Source: Candidatus Binataceae bacterium
Lineage (GTDB): Bacteria > Desulfobacterota > Binatia > Binatales > Binataceae
Assembly: GCA_035531615.1 (NCBI GenBank)
Contig: DATKSQ010000092.1
Coordinates: 4,220 to 68,219, forward strand
Direction: 5' to 3'
DNA length: 64,000 bases
Part shown: positions 7,101-19,456 of the stretch, one piece after another
How the letters are laid out: each line of letters opens with the position of its first letter
How positions within the stretch are numbered: position 1 is the stretch's first letter
The notes under the pieces: model-generated
Database searches by the model: none
Told to the model about the DNA's origin: nothing
Seen by the model: only the letters and a program-made list of their open reading frames with translations
Position numbers and translations under genes: made by a program

Positions 7101-8339
7101 TCAGAGCGCGCCCGGCGCGCGTGCGATCGCGGATTCGCGGGGGCCGTCGCATCGGCCGAGCAGGTCACGGTAGCATCGCATCATATCGCGCGCGCATCGC
7201 TCCCACGAAAACTTGTCAATCATCCAAGCCCGCCCGCGCGCGCCCATCGCGGCTCGCGGCATCACCGCGATCCGTTCGAGCGCCGCCGCAAGGCTCGCCG
7301 CGTCGTTGGCGACCCAAAGCCCGCAGCCGTGCGTTTCAAGCTCGGCCCACGGCGTGCCGTGGCTCGCGATGACCGGGACCTCGCGCGCGAGAGCCTCCGC
7401 GATCACGATGCCGAAGTTTTCGGTGAATGACGGCGCCACGATCACGTCGCGATCGGCGAACCATCGCTCCTTGGCATCGTCCCGCACATCGCCGGACATA
7501 AGCACGTCGATACGTGCTGAAAGTGCGGCCACCCGCACAGAGAGCCTTCGTTCGTAGGCCGGCGCTCCGCTTCCGGCTATAGCGAGCGAAAAGGAAATCC
7601 TTCCGCGCTCGGCAAGCAACACGCACGCCTCGAGCAGGTTCTCGATTCCTTTCTTCGGATCGAGCCGGCCGATGAATCCAATGCGGAGCCGGTCCGCCGA
7701 TTCCAGACGCACCGCGCGCTCCGGAATCTCAACCCCATTGGGGACGATTATCCGGGCCGCGTTCGGAAACCGATCCGCGCACTCGCGCGCCTCATCTCGC
7801 GAAGTCAGGTGTAACGTCCACCGGCGCGGCGCGATCGCGCCAGAGATTTTTTCCCACAGCGACTTGAGCTTCACCCGCCGCGAGCCCGGCCATCGTTGCA
7901 ACGCGCCGTGCGGAGTCCATACGACGGGACGGCCCGCAAGCCGCGCCGCCGCGAGGGTGGGGATGCTCGGGAACGAATACGCCGCGTGCAGATGCACGAG
8001 ATCGGCCCAGCGGACCATCGCGGGTAGCCGCGCGAGCATCGCAGGCGCAACCGACTTCGCCGCGCGCCGAGCGCAGTAGATTGCCTCGACACCGAACGCG
8101 CCCGAGTATTGCGCGCGCGCCCGCGGCGGCAGGCGGCGATGCTCTCCGTTGGCATCGGTGGTCAGCACGCGAACGCAGGCCCCCGCGCAAGCCAGATGAC
8201 GCGTCAGGTGGAAAACGGCCTCGACCAGACCGCCGTACGACCACGCCGGTGCATAGTGCGGCGTGACGTGCAGCACGCGCAGTGCGCGCTGGGATGCGGG
8301 AGTGTCCGAGCCGGATTCCTGCTTGCGCAAAAACGTCAC
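7101..8339 (-). CDS. GT4 glycosyltransferase
   Basis: RVLHVTPHY..AWSYGG, FIGRLDPKKG, ENFGIVIAEALA. GTG 8339 chosen to avoid overlap with the upstream gene. Confidence 0.9.
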   Translation of the reverse strand: MTFLRKQESGSDTPASQRALRVLHVTPHYAPAWSYGGLVEAVFHLTRHLACAGACVRVLTTDANGEHRRLPPRARAQYSGAFGVEAIYCARRAAKSVAPAMLARLPAMVRWADLVHLHAAYSFPSIPTLAAARLAGRPVVWTPHGALQRWPGSRRVKLKSLWEKISGAIAPRRWTLHLTSRDEARECADRFPNAARIIVPNGVEIPERAVRLESADRLRIGFIGRLDPKKGIENLLEACVLLAERGRISFSLAIAGSGAPAYERRLSVRVAALSARIDVLMSGDVRDDAKERWFADRDVIVAPSFTENFGIVIAEALAREVPVIASHGTPWAELETHGCGLWVANDAASLAAALERIAVMPRAAMGARGRAWMIDKFSWERCARDMMRCYRDLLGRCDGPRESAIARAPGAL

Positions 8340-9897: not shown

Positions 9898-10712
9898 CGC
9901 GTCGGCTTCTCAAAATAGACCACGTGCTGGCGGCCCACGTCGTCATCGATAGTCGCGCGCCTTGCTATCGGCTCGGCCACAATCTTTGTGAAGCCCGCCG
10001 AGCCGGCCAGCTCCGCCATTTCAGCCGGTGTGAACGTCACCATCCGGAGCTTGAGCCATTTCTCCCATCCCGTAAGCTCGCCCTGATTTAAGGCGGCGGC
10101 GGTATCGCCGGCCATAAAATGGCACACGCCGACACCGCCTGGCTTCAATACCCGATGAAGGCCTTTGAATACCGCACGGGTCAGTTTCTTGTCCAGATGT
10201 TGCAGCACGGCAATTGAATAGACAAAATCGATTTCCTCGTCCGGAACACATGTAATATTGGGGTCGCGGCTTACGCGGTAACTGATGTTCGGCGCTGCGT
10301 TGAGCACTTGCGCGCAGGCAATCACGCCGCGCGAGACGTCCACCCCAATCACTTGCCCGGCGAACTCGCTCACCGCTTTTGCCAGGTAGCCTGGGCCGCA
10401 CCCAAAATCGAGCAGGGACATCCCAGGGACCAGCGACGGTCTGATCAGGTTCGCGCAGATTGCGCGGCGTGACGCGACGTTTCGATTGAATTCCCGCTCC
10501 AGCACATCGATGCGTGCGGCGCCCACAGGATGGTCCGAAAAATGCGGGCTGAGTCCGAGCAATCGGATCGCAAGGTTGCGTCTGCGATGGATCGGCGCTG
10601 CCGCGAGCATCAACGGCACCACTGGCCGGTCAAGAAACGCTTGCTGTCTCGACAGCAAGGGAATGAGCGCTCGGCCGAGAATCTGGCCGGGCGATTTGCC
10701 GCCTAATCTCAC
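9894..10712 (-). CDS. Class I SAM-dependent methyltransferase
   Basis: LLDFGCGPG, GVDVS, VLQHL, LKPGG; GTG start downstream of GGAGG. Confidence 0.85.
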   Translation of the reverse strand: MRLGGKSPGQILGRALIPLLSRQQAFLDRPVVPLMLAAAPIHRRRNLAIRLLGLSPHFSDHPVGAARIDVLEREFNRNVASRRAICANLIRPSLVPGMSLLDFGCGPGYLAKAVSEFAGQVIGVDVSRGVIACAQVLNAAPNISYRVSRDPNITCVPDEEIDFVYSIAVLQHLDKKLTRAVFKGLHRVLKPGGVGVCHFMAGDTAAALNQGELTGWEKWLKLRMVTFTPAEMAELAGSAGFTKIVAEPIARRATIDDDVGRQHVVYFEKPTR

Positions 10713-10716
10713 TTCG

Positions 10717-11808
10717 CTAATAGTCCTCCGTTCGTGATTGCCCATCGGGCGGGCCATTTTTCCAGATGGATTGCGGCCGAGGCTGCGCCGCGGCAAGAAT
10801 TTCCGCCAGCCGGTCGGCATAGGTATTCCGCCCCTGCGTAATGCGCCGCAAGCCGGCCGCCGCGACGGCGCGCCGAGTATCGTCACGTGGCAGCCAGTCG
10901 CGAATTTTTCCGGTCATCTCATCGGGAGTGCTGAAGAACGCCGCCTCCCGATCCTCGGCGAACAATTCCTGATGCGTGTCCGTCCTCTCCGCCAGCACAA
11001 AGCCGCCGCAGGCCGGCAGCTCGAAGGTCCGCATGACATGGTCGTCGTGATTCGCGCGCCGGACCAAATTTACCGCGATCTTGGCGCCGCCAACCGCGAG
11101 CCGGAAATCGCGCCCGACCGCGTTTCCGCGCCAATACGGCCGCAGCTTCGGATAGCGGCCCCAATAGCCGCCGTACAGATGCAGGCGCAGCTCTGGAATC
11201 TCGCGGATTAGAGTCTCGAAGTAGGGGGCGCGGTCAGCATCGCCGCCCCCGATAAACGTCACATCGCAATCAAACCGCCGCCGCTCTTCGTCGGTGGCGG
11301 GCGGTTCAGGGAAATGCACCTGCGGCATATAACCGAAACGGACGTAAGCGACATTGCCGCATCCGGCCCGGCGCACGTCGTCCATGATCGCGCGCTTGGT
11401 GCATACGTAAAGATCGTACAGCGGTATCGATTCGATCAGTTCGCGGGTGCTGTTGGCCGGATTAAACGGATCGTCGGTGGCCCAGTTGATCAGGGTCGCG
11501 CCGGATGCCTCCCGGACGGCGGCGAGCGTGCCGGGTGCGAAGTAGGCGCCCTTGCCGATTAGCACCAAATCTGGGCGGATACGCCGCGCCTCGGCGACGA
11601 GCGCGGCGTTGAGCGCGCGATAACCGATTGGATGCCCGAGGATCCGACGTGCGACGCGGCTCGGGATCGAGGGCCGCGCGCCGAGATATTTTGCTTCATC
11701 GAAAAACACGAACTCGCATTCCCCGCGCGCCGCCATCGCCCCGAGCCCTTCGATAAAGTGCGCGCTCAAGGGCAGAAACGCGCTCGTCTCAGCGTACAGA
11801 ATTCGCAT
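10717..11808 (-). CDS. CgeB-like glycosyltransferase (Glyco_trans_1_2 type)
   Basis: MRILYAE, WATDDPF, DVTFIGG, MRTFELPACGGFVL. Confidence 0.8.
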   Translation of the reverse strand: MRILYAETSAFLPLSAHFIEGLGAMAARGECEFVFFDEAKYLGARPSIPSRVARRILGHPIGYRALNAALVAEARRIRPDLVLIGKGAYFAPGTLAAVREASGATLINWATDDPFNPANSTRELIESIPLYDLYVCTKRAIMDDVRRAGCGNVAYVRFGYMPQVHFPEPPATDEERRRFDCDVTFIGGGDADRAPYFETLIREIPELRLHLYGGYWGRYPKLRPYWRGNAVGRDFRLAVGGAKIAVNLVRRANHDDHVMRTFELPACGGFVLAERTDTHQELFAEDREAAFFSTPDEMTGKIRDWLPRDDTRRAVAAAGLRRITQGRNTYADRLAEILAAAQPRPQSIWKNGPPDGQSRTEDY

Positions 11809-12964
11809 CGGCTTGATTGAGGCGGCGTCCCGCGAGCGCGGTCTGATACATCGCCGCCATCCGCTCGCCGTAGCTGCTCCATCCGCCGAGCGACTGCACC
11901 CGCGCCAGCGCCGCGGCGCCCATCGCGTCACGAATGTCAGGATGCTCGTGCAGGAAGACCAGCTTGTCCGCTATCGCGGCTGCGTCACGAATCGGGACGA
12001 TAAAACCCTCGATACGGTCGGTGAAAAGGTCTTCGGCTCCCGTGTTCGTGGTCGCAATCACCGGAACGCCGCACGCCATCGCCTGCGCCATGACCAGCCC
12101 AAAGCCGTCCTCTATCGATGGAAGCACGAGGACCGAGGCCTGCGAGTAGTGCCCCGCCAGTTCGCCGCGTGGAAGTACGCCCAGATGGCGCAGTGGAACC
12201 CCGCAATTCCCCACCGTCTTTTTCGTATCGTCGTCCATAGATCCGATCAGCACCAGATCGAGGCCCGCAATCGCGGCGCGCTTCGCGGCTTCGAGCAGGT
12301 AGGCGATTCCCTTGCGGATCGATATCGATCCCACGAACAGGATGCGGAAGACCGAGTCGCGCTTCGGCATCGGATGGAACATCGAGAGATCGACGCCGTA
12401 GGGATTAAGCCGCAGCTTTTCGCGCGGCACGCCATATTCGAGGAACGAGCGCATCGCGAAGCTGGAGGGCACGCTGATCAAATCGCAGAATTCGTATTCG
12501 GCGAGTTCGCGATCGAGGATGCGCTGATCCGTGCCGCGAAACGGAATATCGAAGCGCGCGTATTCCTCGCGCAGAATCTCATTCTGAAACACTATGTGCG
12601 ACGAGCCGCGATCGCATACGGTCAGCGCGCCGTGGCGCGCGCGCGCCGCGCGATGGCTCTCAAGCCCAAACGAAGACAGGCAATGAAAGACCTCGCACGG
12701 CTCGACCCGCGCGGCCATCCAGCGGTCAAAGGTCTCGATCGCACGCATGTTCAGCCGCTCGCGCAAGCCCAGCATCCCGAACCGTCCCGCGATAGTCGCG
12801 GGTCCCATCAACCATGGAAAGGTACTGACTTTCCCGGCCGGCAATCCGTCAACCTTGAAGCGCGGATAGGCGGTATATAGCCGCGCCAGATGCCCGAGGC
12901 GCTCCATCTGCCGCGCCAGATCGAACGCCCAAAACGGCGCAGCGCTGGCAACTGCGACTTTGAT
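11789..12964 (-). CDS. GT4 glycosyltransferase; start uncertain (ATC 12964 aligns with the ATG of the duplicated stub)
   Basis: LFVGSISIRKG, PSIEDGFGLVMAQAMACG. Upstream in-frame ATGs at 13036/13057 overlap the start region of the divergent gene. Confidence 0.88.
   Translation of the reverse strand: MKVAVASAAPFWAFDLARQMERLGHLARLYTAYPRFKVDGLPAGKVSTFPWLMGPATIAGRFGMLGLRERLNMRAIETFDRWMAARVEPCEVFHCLSSFGLESHRAARARHGALTVCDRGSSHIVFQNEILREEYARFDIPFRGTDQRILDRELAEYEFCDLISVPSSFAMRSFLEYGVPREKLRLNPYGVDLSMFHPMPKRDSVFRILFVGSISIRKGIAYLLEAAKRAAIAGLDLVLIGSMDDDTKKTVGNCGVPLRHLGVLPRGELAGHYSQASVLVLPSIEDGFGLVMAQAMACGVPVIATTNTGAEDLFTDRIEGFIVPIRDAAAIADKLVFLHEHPDIRDAMGAAALARVQSLGGWSSYGERMAAMYQTALAGRRLNQADANSVR
12840..12964. 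repeat. Direct repeat copy 1 (5' end of GT4 gene)
   Basis: 125 bp, 15 mismatches against 14026..14150 by manual alignment (~88%). Confidence 0.95.
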
Positions 12965-13038
12965 CCGTGGGCATTGCGCGTTGCCTTTCGGGGAGGCAAC
13001 TTGACTTGCTTCCGCCAACGTTCCTAGGCTCCCCATCA

Positions 13039-14055
13039 ATGGATTCCCAACTGGCATCGGCGTTGGTCTGTCCGCGGGACCACTCCCCTCTGGAAACCTC
13101 CGGCCGCGCGCTGCGATGCGAAAGCGGCCACAGCTACCCGGTCATAGACGAAATTCCGGTCATGCTGCTGGACGATAGGGGGCAGACCCTGGGGGTCGCA
13201 AACGATGCGCTTCGCGAAGCTGCGCAATCGGAATCGGATTCGCCCGGCGAGCGACCGCTCGAACCAGAAGAGGTTGATAGTTACGTAGCGCACGCGATTG
13301 CCGCGACCGGGGGATTCTTTTACCTGCCGCTCATCGGGTCGCTTTCCGCGTATCCGATCCCGGCGCTCCGCCTGCCACCGGCATCGGGATCCCGCTTTCT
13401 CGACCTGGGATGTAATTGGGGGCGATGGTGTATTGCTGCGTCGCGGCTCGGATACGAGCCGTTCGGAATAGACCCCAGTCTCGACGGCGTGCGGGCAGCG
13501 CGCCGCGTGGCGAGCCAGCTCGGCGTCGCGGCTCACTACGCAGTTGCCGACGCGCGGTTTCTCCCATTCGCCGACGATAGTTTTGGGGTCGTGCATTCCT
13601 ACAGCGTGCTGCAGCATTTCAGCAAAGCCGACGCGAGGACCGCATTCACTGAGGCGGCGCGCGTTCTGCGCGCCGGAGGGACGGCGCTGGTTCAGATGCC
13701 GAACGTAATCGGTATCCGCAATTTGTATCATCAGGTGCGCCGTGGATTCCGCGAGCCGACCGGATTTGAAGTTCGATATTGGACACCGCGCGAGCTGCGC
13801 CAAACCGGTGAGAGTCTGATCGGACCGACCGAGATCTCCATCGATGGATTCTTCAGCCTGAACCCGCAACCCAATCAACTCCTTCCGCTGCGGTTTCGCA
13901 TGATCACAGGAGCATCGGAAATTTTGCGCCACACCGCCGAGTATATTCATCCGCTGCTTTATGCCGCCGATAGTCTGTACCTGACCGCTATAAAGACGCA
14001 GCACCATCAGCGCGATCGCTCCGCGGGCAATCCGTCCACCTTGAAGCGCGGATAG
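13039..14055 (+). CDS. Trm112-like domain fused to class I SAM methyltransferase (inverted relative to the operon)
   Basis: LVCPRDH..LRCESGHSYPVIDEIPVML followed by FLDLGCNWGRW and ADARFLPF; the only plus-strand gene in 1-37 kb. Confidence 0.88.
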   Translation: MDSQLASALVCPRDHSPLETSGRALRCESGHSYPVIDEIPVMLLDDRGQTLGVANDALREAAQSESDSPGERPLEPEEVDSYVAHAIAATGGFFYLPLIGSLSAYPIPALRLPPASGSRFLDLGCNWGRWCIAASRLGYEPFGIDPSLDGVRAARRVASQLGVAAHYAVADARFLPFADDSFGVVHSYSVLQHFSKADARTAFTEAARVLRAGGTALVQMPNVIGIRNLYHQVRRGFREPTGFEVRYWTPRELRQTGESLIGPTEISIDGFFSLNPQPNQLLPLRFRMITGASEILRHTAEYIHPLLYAADSLYLTAIKTQHHQRDRSAGNPSTLKRG

Positions 14056-14150
14056 GCGGTATAGAGGCGCGTCAGATGCCCGAGCCGCTCCATCTGCCGC
14101 GCCAGGTCGAACGCCCATAGCCGCCCCGCACTGGCTACTACGACTTTCAT
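14007..14150 (-). pseudogene. GT4 N-terminal stub (47 aa)
   Basis: MKVVVASAGRLWAFDLARQMERLGHLTRLYTAYPRFKVDGLPAERSR*. The ATG overlaps the upstream stop (ATGA). Homologous to the N-terminus of 11789..12964. Confidence 0.9.
14026..14150. repeat. Direct repeat copy 2 (5' end of GT4 gene)
   Basis: Aligns colinearly with 12840..12964 at an offset of 1186 bp. Confidence 0.95.
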
Positions 14151-15103
14151 GGATTCACGGCTTGCGCGGTGCGCACGCGCAGATAGATCGAGGAGGGAAA
14201 GTGGCTTTCTGGGTCATCGAAGAGAGGACTACCCGCACCGCGCAATCCATTTTCGGCCGGCTGTGGGTGATAATCCGGAAATACTTCTTGCAGGAGGCCA
14301 GGCCGATCGTAATGAAGCTGGGAGAGACAGAACGTAATCTCAACGCCGCGATTGCCGATCAGGAATGCATGCAGCAGCGCCGTTTCCTGCCACTGGAAGA
14401 AGGTTCGCAGCGCATCGCGCGGATAGTCGTAAGGCAGAAAAATATCGTGGAAGTGAACCACGACTCCCGGCTTAAGCCGCGGCAGCACCTCGAGGATCAG
14501 GAAGTTCGCGTCGCTGCCGGTCTTAACCGCGTGCGACGAGTCGATGAACAGGAAATCTCCGTCGCCAAGCGCCTCGAACAAATCGAAGGGGACCGCCTGC
14601 ACCGGTTTTTCTATCAGCGCCACCTGCGCGCCTTTAAGCCACGCGCTTGGATAGGGCTCTACGCAAGTGATCGCGCATCGCACGCCATTGCGCGCGGCGG
14701 CTTGCAGGATGCAATAGGTCGAGACCCCCGAACCCACCTCGACGATACGCTTTGGCTTGAGACTGCGGACGACGCAATGGAGCGCCTGCGCCTCTATATA
14801 CCCGTAGCCTGGTCCGCAGCCGGCTGAAAGGGCGCTAAAGTAATGGGGGTTGCCGTGAACCTCGGTTGCATACGGAGCGCAAATCTCACGCAACCGCGCG
14901 GCCTGCTGATCCAGGTCGGTCTCAACCCCCGCGAGCTGCGAGGGCTTGGCCCAAATATCCTTGCTCTTGGCGAGCTGAATAACGTCAGGAAAATCGATAT
15001 AGTAATGATTCGGAAGGACAACGGCCCCGCACCGCAGCCCGAGCTTATGGATTGAGAATAGCAACTCCTTGGCCCGGTTCTTGAGTTTTCGCTTAATCGA
15101 CAT
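14147..15103 (-). CDS. Class I SAM methyltransferase (Methyltransf_24-like)
   Basis: IVEVGSGVST, LFIDSSH.VKTGSD, LKPGVVVHFHDIFLPYDYP. Confidence 0.88.
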   Translation of the reverse strand: MSIKRKLKNRAKELLFSIHKLGLRCGAVVLPNHYYIDFPDVIQLAKSKDIWAKPSQLAGVETDLDQQAARLREICAPYATEVHGNPHYFSALSAGCGPGYGYIEAQALHCVVRSLKPKRIVEVGSGVSTYCILQAAARNGVRCAITCVEPYPSAWLKGAQVALIEKPVQAVPFDLFEALGDGDFLFIDSSHAVKTGSDANFLILEVLPRLKPGVVVHFHDIFLPYDYPRDALRTFFQWQETALLHAFLIGNRGVEITFCLSQLHYDRPGLLQEVFPDYHPQPAENGLRGAGSPLFDDPESHFPSSIYLRVRTAQAVNP

Positions 15104-15105
15104 CG

Positions 15106-15237
15106 CTATGCGCGTTTCCCAGCGACGATGGCGATGCGCAGATGGCGGCGCAGCCAGCGCAGGCGGTCATAGACCATCGGATCGCCCTGGATAAACATCG
15201 CGCGCCATCCGAGGAGGCGAATCAGCGGGTCAGTCAT
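15106..15237 (-). pseudogene. MTDP stub copy C (43 aa truncated gene start)
   Basis: MTDPLIRLLGWRAMFIQGDPMVYDRLRWLRRHLRIAIVAGKRA*; the stop lies 2 nt before the next ATG. Confidence 0.75.
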
Positions 15238-15302
15238 GGGAGCACCGGCATCATTGCTTGCGGGCGGTGCCTTGGCTGGTGAAATCGCATCGCTCCAGGC
15301 CC
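15178..15302. repeat. Direct repeat (3' end of the 17365 gene + spacer + MTDP start), copy C
   Basis: About 10 mismatches over 116 bp against 17292..17407; offset 2114 bp. Confidence 0.95.
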
Positions 15303-15331
15303 ATGTCTGCGCTTTTTCATCGAAATCACGC

Positions 15332-16219
15332 TCAGCCGTTCGCAGAGGCTGGTTTGGCAAGAATATCCGCGACGAGGTCCGGCCGCGCTCGGTTCGCGGG
15401 ACTCAGCGGCAGCTCACTGCCATCTTTCAAGAGATTATAAAATTCGTATTCAGCAATGCTCCGCAGGTACCCGACGACGTCATCCTGGGTGTATCCGAAC
15501 CGCTCGCTGTTGATGTCGCTCTCGAAGACAATCACTGGGCGATGAGAAGCGAGGGTCTTATGCGCGCCCTGAAACGCCGCCAACTCGCCGCCCTCGATAT
15601 CGATCTTGATCACATCAGGTGGCGGAATCTCGCCACTCGCCACCATTTCGTCGATCGTGGCCGCAGGGCACACCAAGGCTCTTGAACGCTTTTCGCGGGC
15701 GACCGCGGAGGCATGTATCTGATGTGATCCAATGAAGAGACGGCCCGAACCTGGCGTATTTCCAAGCATGACTGGGAGCACTTTCAATCGGCGGAAGGCG
15801 TTCAGGCCAGCCGACCGGGCGATCGCGAGCGCGAGATCCGGTTGGGGCTCGACCGCAATCACAAAAACCTGATCGTTAAAGAATCGCGCGACTTCGACCG
15901 ACATGTAACCTACGTTCGCCCCGATGTCGTAGAAGACCTTGTCTTTTCCGAGATAGCGAGCGCAGGCAAGAAAGACGTGGTAGTCCCACGACCCGCCGTT
16001 GTTCAGAAGATTTGCGAATACGTCGAAACTCCTGGAGGTTACCGCCAGCTTGCCCCCGTGTTTCGTCGGTACCCACTGATTGCCATCGGTGGAAAAACGC
16101 CCGGCCAAACGTGGAAACCATCCTTTGCCCCGGGGAACGTACTTTGCCCAGAGGCGGGCCAAGTCGAGCGCAAGACCGATATTTCCTTTGTCAGGCGTGT
16201 TCGATTTTTCGATGTTCAT
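15332..16219 (-). CDS. FkbM-family methyltransferase
   Basis: VFYDIGANVGY, AVEPQP, VIKIDIEGGE. Confidence 0.92.
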   Translation of the reverse strand: MNIEKSNTPDKGNIGLALDLARLWAKYVPRGKGWFPRLAGRFSTDGNQWVPTKHGGKLAVTSRSFDVFANLLNNGGSWDYHVFLACARYLGKDKVFYDIGANVGYMSVEVARFFNDQVFVIAVEPQPDLALAIARSAGLNAFRRLKVLPVMLGNTPGSGRLFIGSHQIHASAVAREKRSRALVCPAATIDEMVASGEIPPPDVIKIDIEGGELAAFQGAHKTLASHRPVIVFESDINSERFGYTQDDVVGYLRSIAEYEFYNLLKDGSELPLSPANRARPDLVADILAKPASANG

Positions 16220-16227
16220 CGTCAGAC

Positions 16228-16317
16228 TCAGTTAACCCAAGCGGGGTAAACAAGCCGGAGGAGTTCCGGCCGCGCTGGAACGCGCCACCCGAGGACGCGA
16301 ATCAGCGGGTCAGTCAT
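16228..16317 (-). pseudogene. MTDP stub copy B (29 aa)
   Basis: MTDPLIRVLGWRVPARPELLRLVYPAWVN*; 16281..16319 matches copies A and C at 37/39 nt. Confidence 0.75.
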
Positions 16318-16342
16318 GGATTCAATCAATCGGGCAACCCAC

Positions 16343-17272
16343 TCAGACTCTGCCGGCCCCGCCGCAAGGCCAGAAGGCGGCAAGATGCTCCGGCGGCACG
16401 ATCAGCACCTCGCACTCGGTGAAACCGGGTTCGGCCCGGAAACGCGCGAGCGAATGGGCAAATTGAGATCTGCCGGTAACCCCAAATACCGTCGCGCCGT
16501 CATAGAAGCACGAACGAAGCCCGGCCTCGCCGCCCAATTCGTTTAGCCCCGGCTCCGAGAGCTCCAGCAAGACGAACGGGCGATCGCGCGCGAAAACCGC
16601 CTTGAGGCCGCGAAGGACGGCAGGCTCAAAGCCCTCTACATCGATCTTGAAGATCCCAACGCCGGAGATTCCCTTCTCAGCCAGGAACTCGCTGGCTTGC
16701 CTGACCTCGATTGGAATGGAGGCGCGCGCGTTGCCGCCATGCGTCGCGAGAAAGGAGCCGGTCCCCTCGTTAACCGTGCATGGCGGAAAATACGCCATGG
16801 TCTCGTCCCGATCGCCGAGCGCGGTCTCAAATAAGGTGGCGTTTGCGATGTGGTTCAGTTCAATCTTTTCACGGGCACGCCGCAGGACGGACCCGTTCGG
16901 GTCAAACCCGTACAACTCATCGGCAAGGCCGCTCATAAGCAGCAGGTGATGACCGACGTTGACGCCGATATCCACATACACGACGCGCCGGCCGCGGCGG
17001 CGAAGATAACGGGCCGCGCGATCAAGGACGCTGAGCTCGGAGGGCGCGTGAGCTCCGTAAAGCAGCACGACCCAGTCGAGATAGTTCTTGGTATTTCCGC
17101 GGTAGCGTAAGCCGAAAAAGTCCACCTCGAAAGGCAGATCATAGCCCCGGTCGGGATTTAGGATCATAAACAAGAGCCGGTTTTGCCCCCTGAGTATCCA
17201 GCGTTGATGGCCTAGCCATCTCGCGAATCGAACCCGCAAGGGGAATTGGTTGGCGAATTTATCGTCAGGCAT
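16343..17272 (-). CDS. FkbM-family methyltransferase
   Basis: YVDIGVNVGHH, GFDPN, FKIDVEGFE. Confidence 0.92.
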   Translation of the reverse strand: MPDDKFANQFPLRVRFARWLGHQRWILRGQNRLLFMILNPDRGYDLPFEVDFFGLRYRGNTKNYLDWVVLLYGAHAPSELSVLDRAARYLRRRGRRVVYVDIGVNVGHHLLLMSGLADELYGFDPNGSVLRRAREKIELNHIANATLFETALGDRDETMAYFPPCTVNEGTGSFLATHGGNARASIPIEVRQASEFLAEKGISGVGIFKIDVEGFEPAVLRGLKAVFARDRPFVLLELSEPGLNELGGEAGLRSCFYDGATVFGVTGRSQFAHSLARFRAEPGFTECEVLIVPPEHLAAFWPCGGAGRV

Positions 17273-17351
17273 TATCAACCCCGAACCAAACCGGATCGCC
17301 CTGGATAAACATCGCGCGCCATCCGAGGACGCGAATCATCGGGTCAGTCAT
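17265..17351 (-). pseudogene. MTDP stub copy A (28 aa)
   Basis: MTDPMIRVLGWRAMFIQGDPVWFGVDNA*; its end overlaps the ATG of the FkbM gene. Confidence 0.75.
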
Positions 17352-17415
17352 GGGGATGTCGGCATCACTGCTTGCGGGCGGCGCCCTGGCTGGTGAAATC
17401 GCATCGCGCGAGGCC
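17292..17415. repeat. Direct repeat copy A (gene end + spacer + MTDP start)
   Basis: Colinear with 15178..15302. Confidence 0.95.
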
Positions 17416-18162
17416 GTGCGCGCTGCAGAAGTCCGGCCAGGCGGAATGGCCTAGGATATCGTCGCTCCACATCACGCCGCCCGGCCTCAGAAATGGCAGC
17501 GCAGTCTCGAATTCCCACATCATGTGGTCGTAGGAGTGGTCGCTGTCATGGATGAATATGTCGATCGAGCCGAGCGACTGGAGCAGCGGCGGCAGTTTCT
17601 CGCGCGCGTCGCCTGACACTACAGTATGGCGTTCAAGCAGGGCGCCGGGAATCGCCCATCCCGAGGTCAGGCCATCAGGGGTGAAGGAGTGGCCCTCGGC
17701 GGGATTCAGCTCGCGGCCGTCCGCGGGCGGCGGGGCGAGATCGACGGTCCATAGATGGCCGGCGGCGTTGCGATCGAGCGCGCGCAGGATAAAGGCCGAG
17801 GACTTGCCGGGGGTGCCTCCAGTCTCGACGATTTTTTCGGGGCGCATGATCCGGGTCAGCGCATAGAGCGCCACGCATGAGAAGAACATCGTATTGCCGT
17901 CGGGGGCGACCATGAAGTCAGTCGGCAGCGGGAAATAGTTTACGTGCTCGCGATAGCGGCCTCGGACGTCGGCGGTGAACTCGCGATCGTTTTCGATCTC
18001 GCGGCAGAAGCGGTCGGCCTCGGCGGATGAGGAGCCGGTAAGGCGGGCGAGTGAATCGTTGCGCACGCGCCGGAACTTTCCATATTGGAGCATCAATCGC
18101 GCGCGATTGACGATAGTGCGTGGCCGGCGGATCGCGATTCCAGCCGCTTCAATCCAATTCAT
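17365..18162 (-). CDS. Class I SAM methyltransferase (Methyltransf_24-like)
   Basis: IVETGGTPGKSS, DIFIHDSDHSY.HM.WE, LRPGG..WSDD. Confidence 0.88.
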   Translation of the reverse strand: MNWIEAAGIAIRRPRTIVNRARLMLQYGKFRRVRNDSLARLTGSSSAEADRFCREIENDREFTADVRGRYREHVNYFPLPTDFMVAPDGNTMFFSCVALYALTRIMRPEKIVETGGTPGKSSAFILRALDRNAAGHLWTVDLAPPPADGRELNPAEGHSFTPDGLTSGWAIPGALLERHTVVSGDAREKLPPLLQSLGSIDIFIHDSDHSYDHMMWEFETALPFLRPGGVMWSDDILGHSAWPDFCSAHGLARCDFTSQGAARKQ

Positions 18163-19456
18163 TTTGATGTTCAACCGAACTCCTTCGGCATCGCGCAGCC
18201 GGATCGTCCGCCACACCGGCGAGCGCAAGCAGTCTTTCCAGCACGGGGGCGAAGACCTGCTCGTAGTTGTATTTGGTTTCGTGCGCGCGGCGCGCCGCGA
18301 GGCTCATCGCGATATAGCGATCGCGGTCGGCGAGGATGAACTCGATCGCGCGGGCGATCGACGCGGGGTCTTCGGGATTGGCGTACGCGACCCATTCGTC
18401 ATCGGCGAAGAACTCGCGGAAGCTCTTGCGATCGGGAACCACCACCGGCAAGCCCCACGCCGCGTACTCGAACAACTTGTTGGGCGACGGCCCCGAATGC
18501 TCCCAGTTCGGGTTCGCGGCGTGATAGAGCACCAAGCCCACGGCCGCATCCTCGGCGCGCCGGATGCGCTCCGGATTCGGCACCCATCCGGCGATACTCA
18601 CGCGGCCCGCAAGCGCAAGTGCGGCGGCCATCTGCGAGAGCCGTATGCGATATTCCGGCGTGCTGAAGCCGATCAAGTCGAGAGCTACCGGAGCGGGCAG
18701 AAATTCGAGCGCGCGGATCGCGTCGGGCTGGCCGTTTTCGGCGCCCATCGAACCCACGTAGAGGACGCGCTTTGATTCCCAGCGGCGACGCGCCAACGCG
18801 CTCCAATCTTCGTCTTCGCGGGGCGGGTAGAAATCGCGCGCGGCGCCGTTGGGGATGATCATCGGCGGGCGCGGATCGCGGGCCTTATCGAGCCAGATCG
18901 GCGCGCGATATTTCGACGGAAAGATCGTGAACGCGGCGTCGCGCGTGTGGCGCATCGCATAGCGTAAAATCCAGTCCTGGAGCGACGCGAGCCGGACGCG
19001 GCCGAGCGCGGGAGTGTCGTGGCAGTGGAACACCACGGGGATATCTTTGCGCCGCGGGCCGAGCGCCGCGATCGAGGCGGCAAAGCCGATCGGATCGTAG
19101 GCGTAAATCAATGCGGGTCCGGTTTCGGCGATTACGCAACCCAGGCGGCGCACGAATCTTCGATACCACGACAGCTTGCGCCATGCGGGCGCATCGAAAG
19201 CCTGAGCCGCGGTGATAATCTCGCCGACCCGCTCGATCGTAACTCCGGGCGCCCAATCCGCCGCCGGTCCCGCGTCATTGCGGCATACGATTTGCACCTC
19301 GAAACGCTCGCTCATCATGCGCACGCCGTTGACGGTCGGCGGGTGGTAGTTGGGATTCGCGTACATCACGACGAGCAGGCGCGGGCGCGCGCGCGCGGCG
19401 GGAGTGATAGCCGGCGCGGGCGCGGCGCTAATTCGCGGTGGCGATGATGTGGCCAT
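18149..19456 (-). CDS. GT4 glycosyltransferase
   Basis: VLYVGSM, SPNKLFEYAAWGLPVV, DPASIARAI. Confidence 0.88.
   Translation of the reverse strand: MATSSPPRISAAPAPAITPAARARPRLLVVMYANPNYHPPTVNGVRMMSERFEVQIVCRNDAGPAADWAPGVTIERVGEIITAAQAFDAPAWRKLSWYRRFVRRLGCVIAETGPALIYAYDPIGFAASIAALGPRRKDIPVVFHCHDTPALGRVRLASLQDWILRYAMRHTRDAAFTIFPSKYRAPIWLDKARDPRPPMIIPNGAARDFYPPREDEDWSALARRRWESKRVLYVGSMGAENGQPDAIRALEFLPAPVALDLIGFSTPEYRIRLSQMAAALALAGRVSIAGWVPNPERIRRAEDAAVGLVLYHAANPNWEHSGPSPNKLFEYAAWGLPVVVPDRKSFREFFADDEWVAYANPEDPASIARAIEFILADRDRYIAMSLAARRAHETKYNYEQVFAPVLERLLALAGVADDPAARCRRSSVEHQNELD

Follow-up and report, generated by a model that had tools for sequence, protein, structure and literature searches.

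In Enterobacteria, mosaic O-antigen and capsule loci are known to hold gene remnants at their junctions, as are the cps loci of pneumococci. Phages and islands that insert at tRNA or protein genes carry a replacement gene end, and leave attL/attR direct repeats. Homology-facilitated illegitimate recombination (HFIR, 'homologous recombination at the border') has reportedly been observed during natural transformation in Acinetobacter and Streptococcus pneumoniae (de Vries & Wackernagel, 2002, and Prudhomme et al., 2002, as cited in PMC3784515). Transformation can also give rise to duplications through unequal or inter-chromatid integration, with sizes of 100-900 kb and positions between IS-derived repeats (Johnston et al., 2013; PMC3784515).

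The locus considered here lies in a 64,000-nt stretch of DNA (the window), from a metagenome-assembled genome (MAG) of a Candidatus Binataceae bacterium. Two direct repeats enclose a single SAM-methyltransferase gene on the opposite strand (M); one repeat is the start of a full glycosyltransferase gene (GT4) and the other lies in a short open reading frame, or stub, behind another methyltransferase gene, MT24 (Table 1). We consider it likely that this islet is a recombination scar, which joins two existing layouts of one exopolysaccharide locus.

Each of the systems above resembles the islet in part. As in HFIR, homology within the GT4 body appears to account for one side, the opposite side (GT4 nt ~128 to the M 3' flank) would be a new joint that shows no evident homology, and foreign cargo is placed beside a conserved anchor gene. 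Both an unoccupied site (contigs L099-L102) and the inserted module in its own context (G077/L122, L118 and L119) are present among relatives. However, the islet is inferred from the natural genomes of an uncultured lineage, whereas HFIR was observed in experiment, and it includes duplicated resident sequence (nt ~67-128) rather than an insertion-deletion only. With the O-antigen, capsule and cps loci it shares a polysaccharide locus with conserved flanks, a variable recombined centre and truncated ends that mark former junctions. It differs in that the gene whose 5' end the remnant repeats is itself retained, 1.2 kb away, and in that stubs of one and the same anchor gene, unequal in length, occur in at least four lineages. 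The duplications of Johnston et al. (2013) offer a way in which a linear fragment, its ends pairing at non-equivalent places, could give direct repeats around new material, but the duplication in the islet measures 128 nt and has one illegitimate end. Finally, as with elements at att sites, the module supplies a GT4 5' end of its own, so that the gene stays whole, and the displaced resident end persists as a direct repeat. Unlike those elements, the islet has neither an integrase nor a conserved core site, its repeat length ranges from 0 to ~206 nt by lineage, and its cargo is one methyltransferase gene.

Table 1. Features of the islet and its immediate neighbours, by position in the window
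Feature	Position	Strand	Description
GT4	11789..13018	-	Predicted glycosyltransferase; 391 aa from ATC 12964, 409 aa from TTG 13018, 415 aa from ATG 13036
Repeat copy A	12837..12964	-	First 128 nt of full GT4; ATC at codon 1
Spacer	12965..13038	.	74-nt divergent spacer of the M cassette; collinear with G077
M	13039..14055	+	Predicted class I SAM methyltransferase of 338 aa, encoded against the direction of the operon; Methyltransf_25/11 (Pfam)
Novel joint	14001..14022	.	M 3' flank meets resident GT4 nt ~128-130 (blastn end points, alignment of M 3' ends)
GT4 start stub	14007..14150	-	47-codon ORF
Repeat copy B	14023-14150	-	Equals resident GT4 nt 1-128; within the 47-codon stub
MT24	14147..15103	-	318-aa Methyltransf_24-type methyltransferase; Pfam PF13578, E 1.2e-14

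Genes of the locus

MT24 is the final gene of the 'resident' layout ahead of the joint. Its protein is 89% identical to that of the sister species G007, and its gene is ~89% identical at the nucleotide level to that of a lineage with an empty site, L099. The TGA stop of MT24 overlaps the ATG of the stub in the sequence ATGA at 14150-14147, and the first 26 residues of the stub are identical to protein P0007.

M is predicted to join a Trm112-like zinc ribbon, at its N-terminus, to a class I SAM methyltransferase. The SAM-binding domain matches Methyltransf_25 (E 3.9e-19), and the ribbon gives only a weak match to Zn_ribbon_RlmA (E 0.003, below the cut-off); some homologues carry PF03966, and JGI names them as 'YbaR (Trm112 family)' fusions. 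A dN/dS of 0.19 was obtained against G077. Homologues of M are 320-325 aa long and end in ...ADSLYVTARKR*. The protein here is 18 aa longer because the native stop (~14000) was lost at the joint, and the 18 extra codons run into the joint and the antisense strand of the stub. M is the sole open reading frame of the 1056-nt insert, and the called neighbours are methyltransferases and glycosyltransferases. The original prediction described M as the only plus-strand gene in ~35 kb; within 10147-19103, the part that was checked, every other called gene does lie on the opposite strand.

In the spacer, a block CAACTTGACTTGCTTC at 12997-13012 (+ strand) is conserved in this genome, G077/L122 and L118, and partly in L119. 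M may be driven by a promoter of its own in this spacer. A sigma-70 promoter scan of 11500-15500 returned 0 sites, and terminator-like sites in the same interval were not commoner than in shuffled sequences.

The product of 11789-12964/13018 is predicted to be a GT4 glycosyltransferase with GT-B fold domains, as Glycos_transf_1 (PF00534, E 1.9e-26) and Glyco_transf_4 (PF13439, E 1.4e-7) both pass their curated cut-offs. The body of the gene is 90% identical to that of L099 at the nucleotide level, with a dN/dS of 0.17. The canonical start codon of GT4 (12964-12962) is ATC, a position held by ATG or GTG in ten orthologues. L119 also lacks the canonical GT4 ATG, but 18 codons upstream, at exactly the place of the TTG in this genome, it has an ATG. 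Translation probably starts at TTG 13018, to give a protein of 409 aa; database records hold both this form (P0006, NCBI) and one of 415 aa (P0005, JGI/ENA). The replacement of ATG by ATC, to which the original prediction drew attention, is real, but its corollary that GT4 has no usable start is weakened by the upstream ATG of L119, which matches the TTG here. Decay of the full GT4 was considered as the origin of its Ala-Pro N-terminus (codons 9-10), and was rejected because this feature is common to all M-linked alleles, including those that keep the ATG.

Repeats flanking the islet

The direct repeats (12837-12964 and 14023-14150) are 128 nt long, with 1186 nt from start to start. Their 16 mismatches make them 87.5% identical, and no uninterrupted match between them exceeds 26 nt. 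The repeats of 125 bp and ~88% identity noted in the original prediction are real. It had also remarked on the number of synonymous mismatches, which is borne out by 10 synonymous against 6 non-synonymous, and its arithmetic of excision is correct: loss of 1186 nt would yield a 391-aa GT4 coupled to MT24. A repeat of this length and identity reflects homology and not chance, and it represents the 5' end of the GT4 gene.

A repeat search found no inverted repeats at the ends of the islet, Pfam found no transposase within it, and the duplication is 128-130 nt; a transposon or insertion sequence was rejected on these three grounds. A fixed repeat of ~125 nt, as the mark of a special mechanism, was also rejected, since lengths of 124, 128 and 146 nt are seen and stubs elsewhere measure 0, 28 and ~206 nt.

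The two copies are of different allele types. Ala-Pro is found at GT4 codons 9-10 in all five M-linked alleles, and Gly-Arg in every other allele and in every stub; a table of variable sites places the first ~66 nt of copy A, with its Ala-Pro, in the cassette type. Compared with GT4 nt 1-128 of L099, the stub is 93% identical (dS 0.25; 7 synonymous and 2 non-synonymous differences), and the 5' end of the full GT4 is 84% identical (dS 0.76, compared with 0.34 over the remaining gene). On these grounds the stub is classed as a resident-type allele. At eight sites (nt 11-66) the stub is resident-type and the full copy cassette-type, the pattern is reversed at nt 79 and 114, and nt 129 breaks it, the types having been called with distant proxies because a close donor of M was not found. 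The reciprocal pattern at nt 79 and 114 is what a Campbell-type single crossover would be expected to leave, but it is not significant (~0.18, from position alone). Three variants within nt 67-128 are common to both copies and missing from both proxies, and these would require a closely related parent or later gene conversion.

Empty site and module in related lineages

The contigs L099-L102, from a ~90% identical lineage in the same metagenome assembly (ERZ27256801), have an empty site with the order MT24-ATGA-GT4. A 318-aa MT24 overlaps a 389-aa GT4 by 4 nt, and the N-terminus of this GT4 matches the stub. By blastn, window positions 15159..14021 and 12964..11833 each find a match in L099, and the two matches overlap there at 7677-7806; therefore this genome has, relative to L099, a 1056-nt insert and a 130-nt duplication. 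At the joint, homology of the M flank to G095 runs to ~14018 and homology of the resident GT4 to L099 reaches about 14021. In principle, the empty-site lineage could be a descendant that deleted the islet and not its ancestor, as the sequence expected is identical under both histories. When metagenomes were scanned with MT24, only the G005-type order, GT4-X-MT24, was recovered.

The inserted module occurs in four or five other Binataceae lineages, as an inverted M, a short spacer and an Ala-Pro GT4. Window positions 11829-13988 are collinear with G077 over 2173 nt at 77% identity, covering GT4, the spacer and the inverted M, and the divergent M-GT4 pair is also present in L118, L119 and L122. 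A search for a close donor of M among 165 family genomes and 5.8 billion proteins gave none, with best matches at 76-77% identity. The stub differs in length by lineage: L118 has none, that of G077 measures 28 nt, that of this genome 128 nt and that of L119 ~206 nt. The differing lengths fit separate illegitimate joints. In the sister species G007, MT24 is followed by a 143-nt stub, a different methyltransferase gene (M') and GT4; four other genomes have M' and GT4 side by side as a standard pair. A single ancestral stub for this genome and G007 was rejected in view of M versus M', 128 versus 143 nt, and M'-GT4 as a separate module.

The locus as a whole has conserved flanks and a variable, heavily recombined centre. 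A second islet in the window holds two FkbM genes, and on comparison with L099 a duplication of 124 nt lies on its flanks; with the M' arrangement of G007, it shows the same signature for other cargo. Stubs also precede three further genes of the locus, each stop abutting the next start.

Origin of the islet and alternative explanations

Related Binataceae carry both layouts, and the islet is therefore best explained as a joint between them. In the first layout, GT4 comes straight after MT24, the stop of which overlaps the GT4 start (ATGA). The second consists of an inverted M, a ~74-nt spacer and a GT4 with a cassette-specific 5' end. In this genome one illegitimate joint probably connects the GT4 of the first layout, at nt ~128-130, to the 3' flank of M, and the other side would have been resolved by homologous recombination, inside or beyond the highly conserved GT4 nt ~46-126. 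The first 128 nt of the displaced GT4 would thus remain as a stub behind MT24, followed by the inverted M and then a working GT4; such a stub would have no function of its own. The route may have been one-sided homology-facilitated recombination or the integration of a Campbell-type circle, as the data fit either. Uptake from a related locus by such routes had been put forward in the original prediction, and it is supported by the collinear module, the empty site and the resident-type stub.

The same prediction had proposed a two-state switch, in which an islet state (M present, GT4 poorly translated) alternates through the 128-nt repeats with an excised state (M absent, GT4 coupled to MT24). 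Deletion would indeed give an in-frame GT4 of 391 aa with an ATG and ATGA coupling, much like the natural allele of L099, an islet-free relative co-occurs in ERZ27256801, and the equivalent repeats of L119, 194 nt long and 96% identical, are more prone to recombine. However, the islet-free contigs are ~10% diverged in their flanks and therefore represent another lineage and not an excision product of this strain, and the islet is carried by nine of the nine contigs that have this strain's M, with the Logan contigs crossing both repeats unbranched. No deleted allele of this strain was found among contigs, which drop rare variants. Repeats with this identity and a 26-nt identical run are near the lower limit for RecA-dependent exchange. 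The islet also has no recombinase gene, excision would be irreversible because the circle has no origin of replication, and GT4 probably has a working start at -18, so that there is no defect for excision to repair. We therefore regard such a switch as very improbable. RecA-dependent deletion between the repeats may be possible, but should be a rare, one-way loss of M.

Selection for the stub itself might account for its persistence, either as a coupled short open reading frame that holds ribosomes on the operon mRNA behind MT24 and so prevents polarity, or, by overlapping the 3' end of M, as a means of tying the expression of M and GT4 through convergent transcription. Its start codon and ATGA coupling are kept without a frameshift, only two non-synonymous against seven synonymous differences separate it from L099, stubs with abutting stops stand before the three other genes of the locus mentioned above, and start-codon stubs are kept in G007, G077 and L119. 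A recent event would equally give low divergence, though, and the length and end sequence of the stub vary among lineages (0 to 206 nt, with L118 stubless); here it ends within the antisense of M with no downstream start adjoining, and a useful stub seems very unlikely. In-place decay of an ancestral GT4a-M-GT4b tandem, with GT4a later cut to its first 128 nt, would explain why stub and full copy are mutually closest within each genome (87% identical in this genome and 93% in G007, versus 78-81% between genomes). Against it, two full GT4 copies flanking M are found in none of 165 family genomes, GT4 homology ends abruptly at the M 3' flank, an empty site and a separate M cassette both exist, and the 5' end of the full copy is of cassette type and not a diverged copy of the stub, all of which makes this history highly improbable.

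An assembly artefact or strain chimera, which the original prediction had named as a possible source of the duplication, deserves mention because the MAG consists of 153 contigs, is 86.6% complete and 3.2% contaminated, and the sample also holds a closely related population. Yet exact matches to the window that span both repeats come from nine contigs of separate assemblies, and the islet is therefore not an artefact of assembly. These data include a MEGAHIT contig of 105 kb and three Logan contigs assembled per run, 100% identical across both repeats and the ATC codon, so that different assemblers and single runs yield the same sequence. With 26 nt as their longest shared run, the repeats leave no k-mer graph ambiguity to link the copies. 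Analogous structures are found in independent MAGs of other species, and an artefactual origin is barely credible.

Implications for polysaccharide loci in Binataceae

The islet reveals no new regulatory device. A wider idea, which at present we think unlikely, is that the methyltransferase genes of Binataceae polysaccharide loci are recombinase-free cassettes with a homology arm of their own (the first ~65 nt of GT4 and the ultra-conserved block). These would enter by RecA-type recombination, leave direct repeats, and be lost again and passed on as circles through them. If true, this would allow gain and loss of glycan methylation at the level of the population without a dedicated mobility enzyme, and would offer a simple recombinase-free route to glycan variation.

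For annotators, GT4 here probably begins 18 codons upstream of the usual position, and displaced-start stubs would account for several odd short open reading frames in the locus. With an empty site, a donor-type module and a joint, the islet provides a case of the way in which tailoring enzymes may be gained by an exopolysaccharide locus of Binatota, an uncultured phylum: whole modules would be spliced in beside an anchor gene that is conserved, and the start of the displaced gene would remain as a stub.

Organisation of the islet

As originally predicted, the inverted SAM methyltransferase gene (M) is enclosed by a real pair of direct repeats, 128 nt each and 1186 nt apart, which by our own count differ at 16 of the 128 positions (10 synonymous and 6 non-synonymous changes, bearing out the claim that many were synonymous) and share a longest identical run of 26 nt. 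One copy opens the full GT4 gene, and the other is a stub whose ATG overlaps the stop of the Methyltransf_24 gene (MT24) as ATGA. Removal of 1186 nt would, as had been calculated correctly, give a coupled GT4 of 391 aa. Pfam reports Glycos_transf_1 and Glyco_transf_4 on GT4 and a class I methyltransferase on M, and JGI names the homologues of M as Trm112/YbaR-family fusions.

Features of the islet, its surroundings and a further contig of the same genome
Feature	Coordinates	Strand	Description
First repeat pair	12837-12964; 14023-14150		5′ ends of full GT4 and stub
MT24	15103..14147	minus	Methyltransf_24 gene, 318 aa
47-codon ORF (stub)	14150..14007	minus	first 43 codons are the GT4 N-terminus
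M	13039..14055	plus, opposite to neighbours	SAM methyltransferase, 338 aa
Spacer between M and full GT4			74 nt
Full GT4	ends at 11789	minus	ATC at the codon where the stub has ATG
Second repeat pair	15178-15301; 17292-17415		124 nt, 90% identity, 2114 nt apart
MTDP stubs	15106-15237; 16228-16383 (MTDP part ~16290-16320); ~17270-17317
Contig G000:C90 (L017)	3-305 and 1139-2044 (on that contig)		GT4 5′ end and FkbM homologue

The source genome is a MAG of Candidatus Binataceae (153 contigs, 86.6% complete), and the possibility, raised with the prediction, that the duplication is an assembly artefact was checked against other contigs. The islet is recovered identically in a 105-kb MEGAHIT contig (100% identity over 8957 nt) and in three Logan contigs, each from a single run, which are 100% identical from one repeat through the islet to the other, the ATC codon included. 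Because runs shared by the repeat copies never exceed 26 nt, an assembly graph would not confuse them. The duplication is not an artefact.

An empty site in a related lineage

The 90% cluster of the window GT4 includes a protein of 389 aa (P0007) whose start, MKVVVASAGRLWAFDLARQMERLGHL, is letter-for-letter identical to that of the stub; on its contigs (L099-L102) an MT24 gene of 318 aa overlaps GT4 by 4 nt, with no gene between them. Window 15159..14021 aligns to L099 6669-7806 and window 12964..11833 to L099 7677-8808, each at ~89-90% identity, and since the two alignments overlap on 130 nt of L099, the window carries, relative to this lineage, an insert of 1056 nt and a second copy of the first 130 nt of GT4. 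The flanks of the islet diverge from the L099 lineage by ~10%, so that L099-L102 represent a separate lineage rather than the same strain with the islet deleted; L101 and an islet-bearing contig come from the same assembly. The empty-site lineage has two extra genes, of 310 aa and 610 aa (the latter asparagine synthase-like), between GT4 and the next glycosyltransferase (L100 1882-4788, corresponding to window ~11809-11833), both absent from the locus described here.

Homologues of M terminate in ...ADSLYVTARKR* at 320-325 aa. The window M has lost this stop, and its 18 added codons cross ~20 nt of the M 3′ flank and then the stub in antisense. Homology to the M flank stops near 14018 and homology to the resident GT4 begins near 14021, and judged by these limits the boundary is a novel joint.

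The cassette and its scars in other genomes

None of the ten congeners first searched has M; across the family, 18 of 165 genomes have it. G077, which belongs to another genus, carries the inverted M 75 nt from the GT4 start, and window 11829-13988 is collinear with this locus (2173 nt, 77% identity). The nearest M homologues in a large protein collection gave three more M/GT4 pairs (L118, L119 and L122, the last of the same lineage as G077). GT4 codons 9-10 encode Ala-Pro in 5/5 M-linked alleles and Gly-Arg in 12 other alleles and all stubs; as Ala-Pro is confined to M-linked GT4, the cassette takes in the opening few dozen bases of GT4 along with M and the spacer. Against L099, identity is 84% (dS 0.76) over the first 128 nt of the full copy, ~90% (dS 0.34) over the remainder of the gene and 93% (dS 0.25) for the stub, and the first 64 nt of the G077 GT4 are likewise divergent (77-80% to congeners; next 64 nt 97-100%). 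These divergences agree with a cassette that includes the GT4 start.

On the plus strand of the spacer (12997-13030), TTGACT (13001-13006) and TAGGCT (13025-13030) lie 18 nt apart, a short way before the M ATG, and the TTGACT block is kept in the source genome, G077/L122 and L118. The pair, which a consensus promoter scan did not report, may be M's own promoter and would make the M mRNA nearly leaderless.

Stubs also occur at related loci. That of G077, 28 nt long (ATGAAGATCTGTGTTGGCAGCGCCGG) and identical to its congeners' GT4 start, abuts the stop of M, and L118 has no stub. The sister species G007 carries different cargo, with the order MT24, 143-nt stub, another methyltransferase (M′) on the same strand and GT4; M′ and GT4 also form a standard pair of neighbours in four other genomes. 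L119 has MT24, a ~206-nt stub, an M′ fragment, inverted M and GT4, with a repeat of 194 nt at 96% identity. Within it (JGI Ga0556607_0048842, operon-sense 224-610) the stub frame reads on through the final ~60 codons of an M′-type methyltransferase, a remnant that borders on the 3′ end of inverted M; the arrangement looks as though two recombination events, one after the other, had left their scars at the same position. A fixed stub length of ~125 nt as the mark of a special mechanism was dropped because lengths range from 0 to ~206 nt.

Four Logan contigs of the G007 type (L108, L109, L111 and L112) all stop 27 nt past the MT24 stop, where the G007 repeat copies share a run of ~35 identical bases; an assembly break at the repeat with k=31 would explain these ends, which are not evidence for two alleles. 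L103 and L104 have just 3 mismatches in 3.4 kb to L016 of G007, yet M′ is called there as short fragments only (84 aa), and point mutation may have knocked it out in some populations.

Origin and stability of the islet

In the simplest account, one illegitimate joint would link two existing layouts, MT24-GT4 and inverted M facing GT4, with homologous recombination, within the conserved GT4 block or past it, resolving the other side of the exchange. Homology-facilitated illegitimate recombination fits this account, as does Campbell-type integration of a circle. Recombination with a related locus as the proposed origin draws support from the empty site in L099-L102 and the module in G077, L118, L119 and L122. 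The stub is resident-type and the full copy cassette-type at eight sites; the reverse holds at two, and one site breaks the pattern. This hints at a reciprocal mosaic but is not significant. Three private variants common to both copies at nt 67-128 require either that the parent was a close relative or that gene conversion followed later.

The prediction went further and proposed a potential two-state switch, by recombination between the repeats. Such a deletion would indeed recreate an L099-like locus, but it would be irreversible, the repeats are just 87.5% identical with at most 26 consecutive identical bases, no recombinase is present at the islet, and 9/9 contigs of this strain carry it; a rare deletion variant of the strain may exist. 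The associated premise that GT4 lacks a usable start is also doubtful. The L119 GT4 also lacks the canonical ATG (AGC instead) and has an ATG exactly 18 codons upstream, and the matching window position is TTG 13018, from which a 409-aa GT4, the form in NCBI sources (P0006), would start. With dN/dS of 0.17 for GT4 (against L099) and 0.19 for M (against G077), both genes look constrained.

A second islet and further stubs

The second repeat pair encloses two FkbM-type (Methyltransf_21) genes, each copy consisting of the 3′ end of gene 17365-18228, a spacer and the start of an 'MTDP...' methyltransferase gene. L099 lacks this insertion, and compared with it the target is duplicated over 124 nt, as at the M islet. 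Three stubs starting MTDP(L/M)IR(L/V)LGWR precede MT24 and both FkbM genes; the full MTDP gene (249 aa) is found in G007 (L016 700-1449), G005 and L099, and this genome lacks its central part (L099 6074-6668). Contig G000:C90 (3 kb), from the same MAG, has a third GT4 5′ end at its edge (75% nt, 68% aa) and a homologue of FkbM with 72% aa identity to gene 16343-17278; it may derive from a second locus or from a related strain that was co-binned.

Taken together, the analysis confirms the observation and supports recombination with a related locus as its origin, and it does not support the switch; the islet is a well-documented case of a known type of event, in an uncultured lineage.
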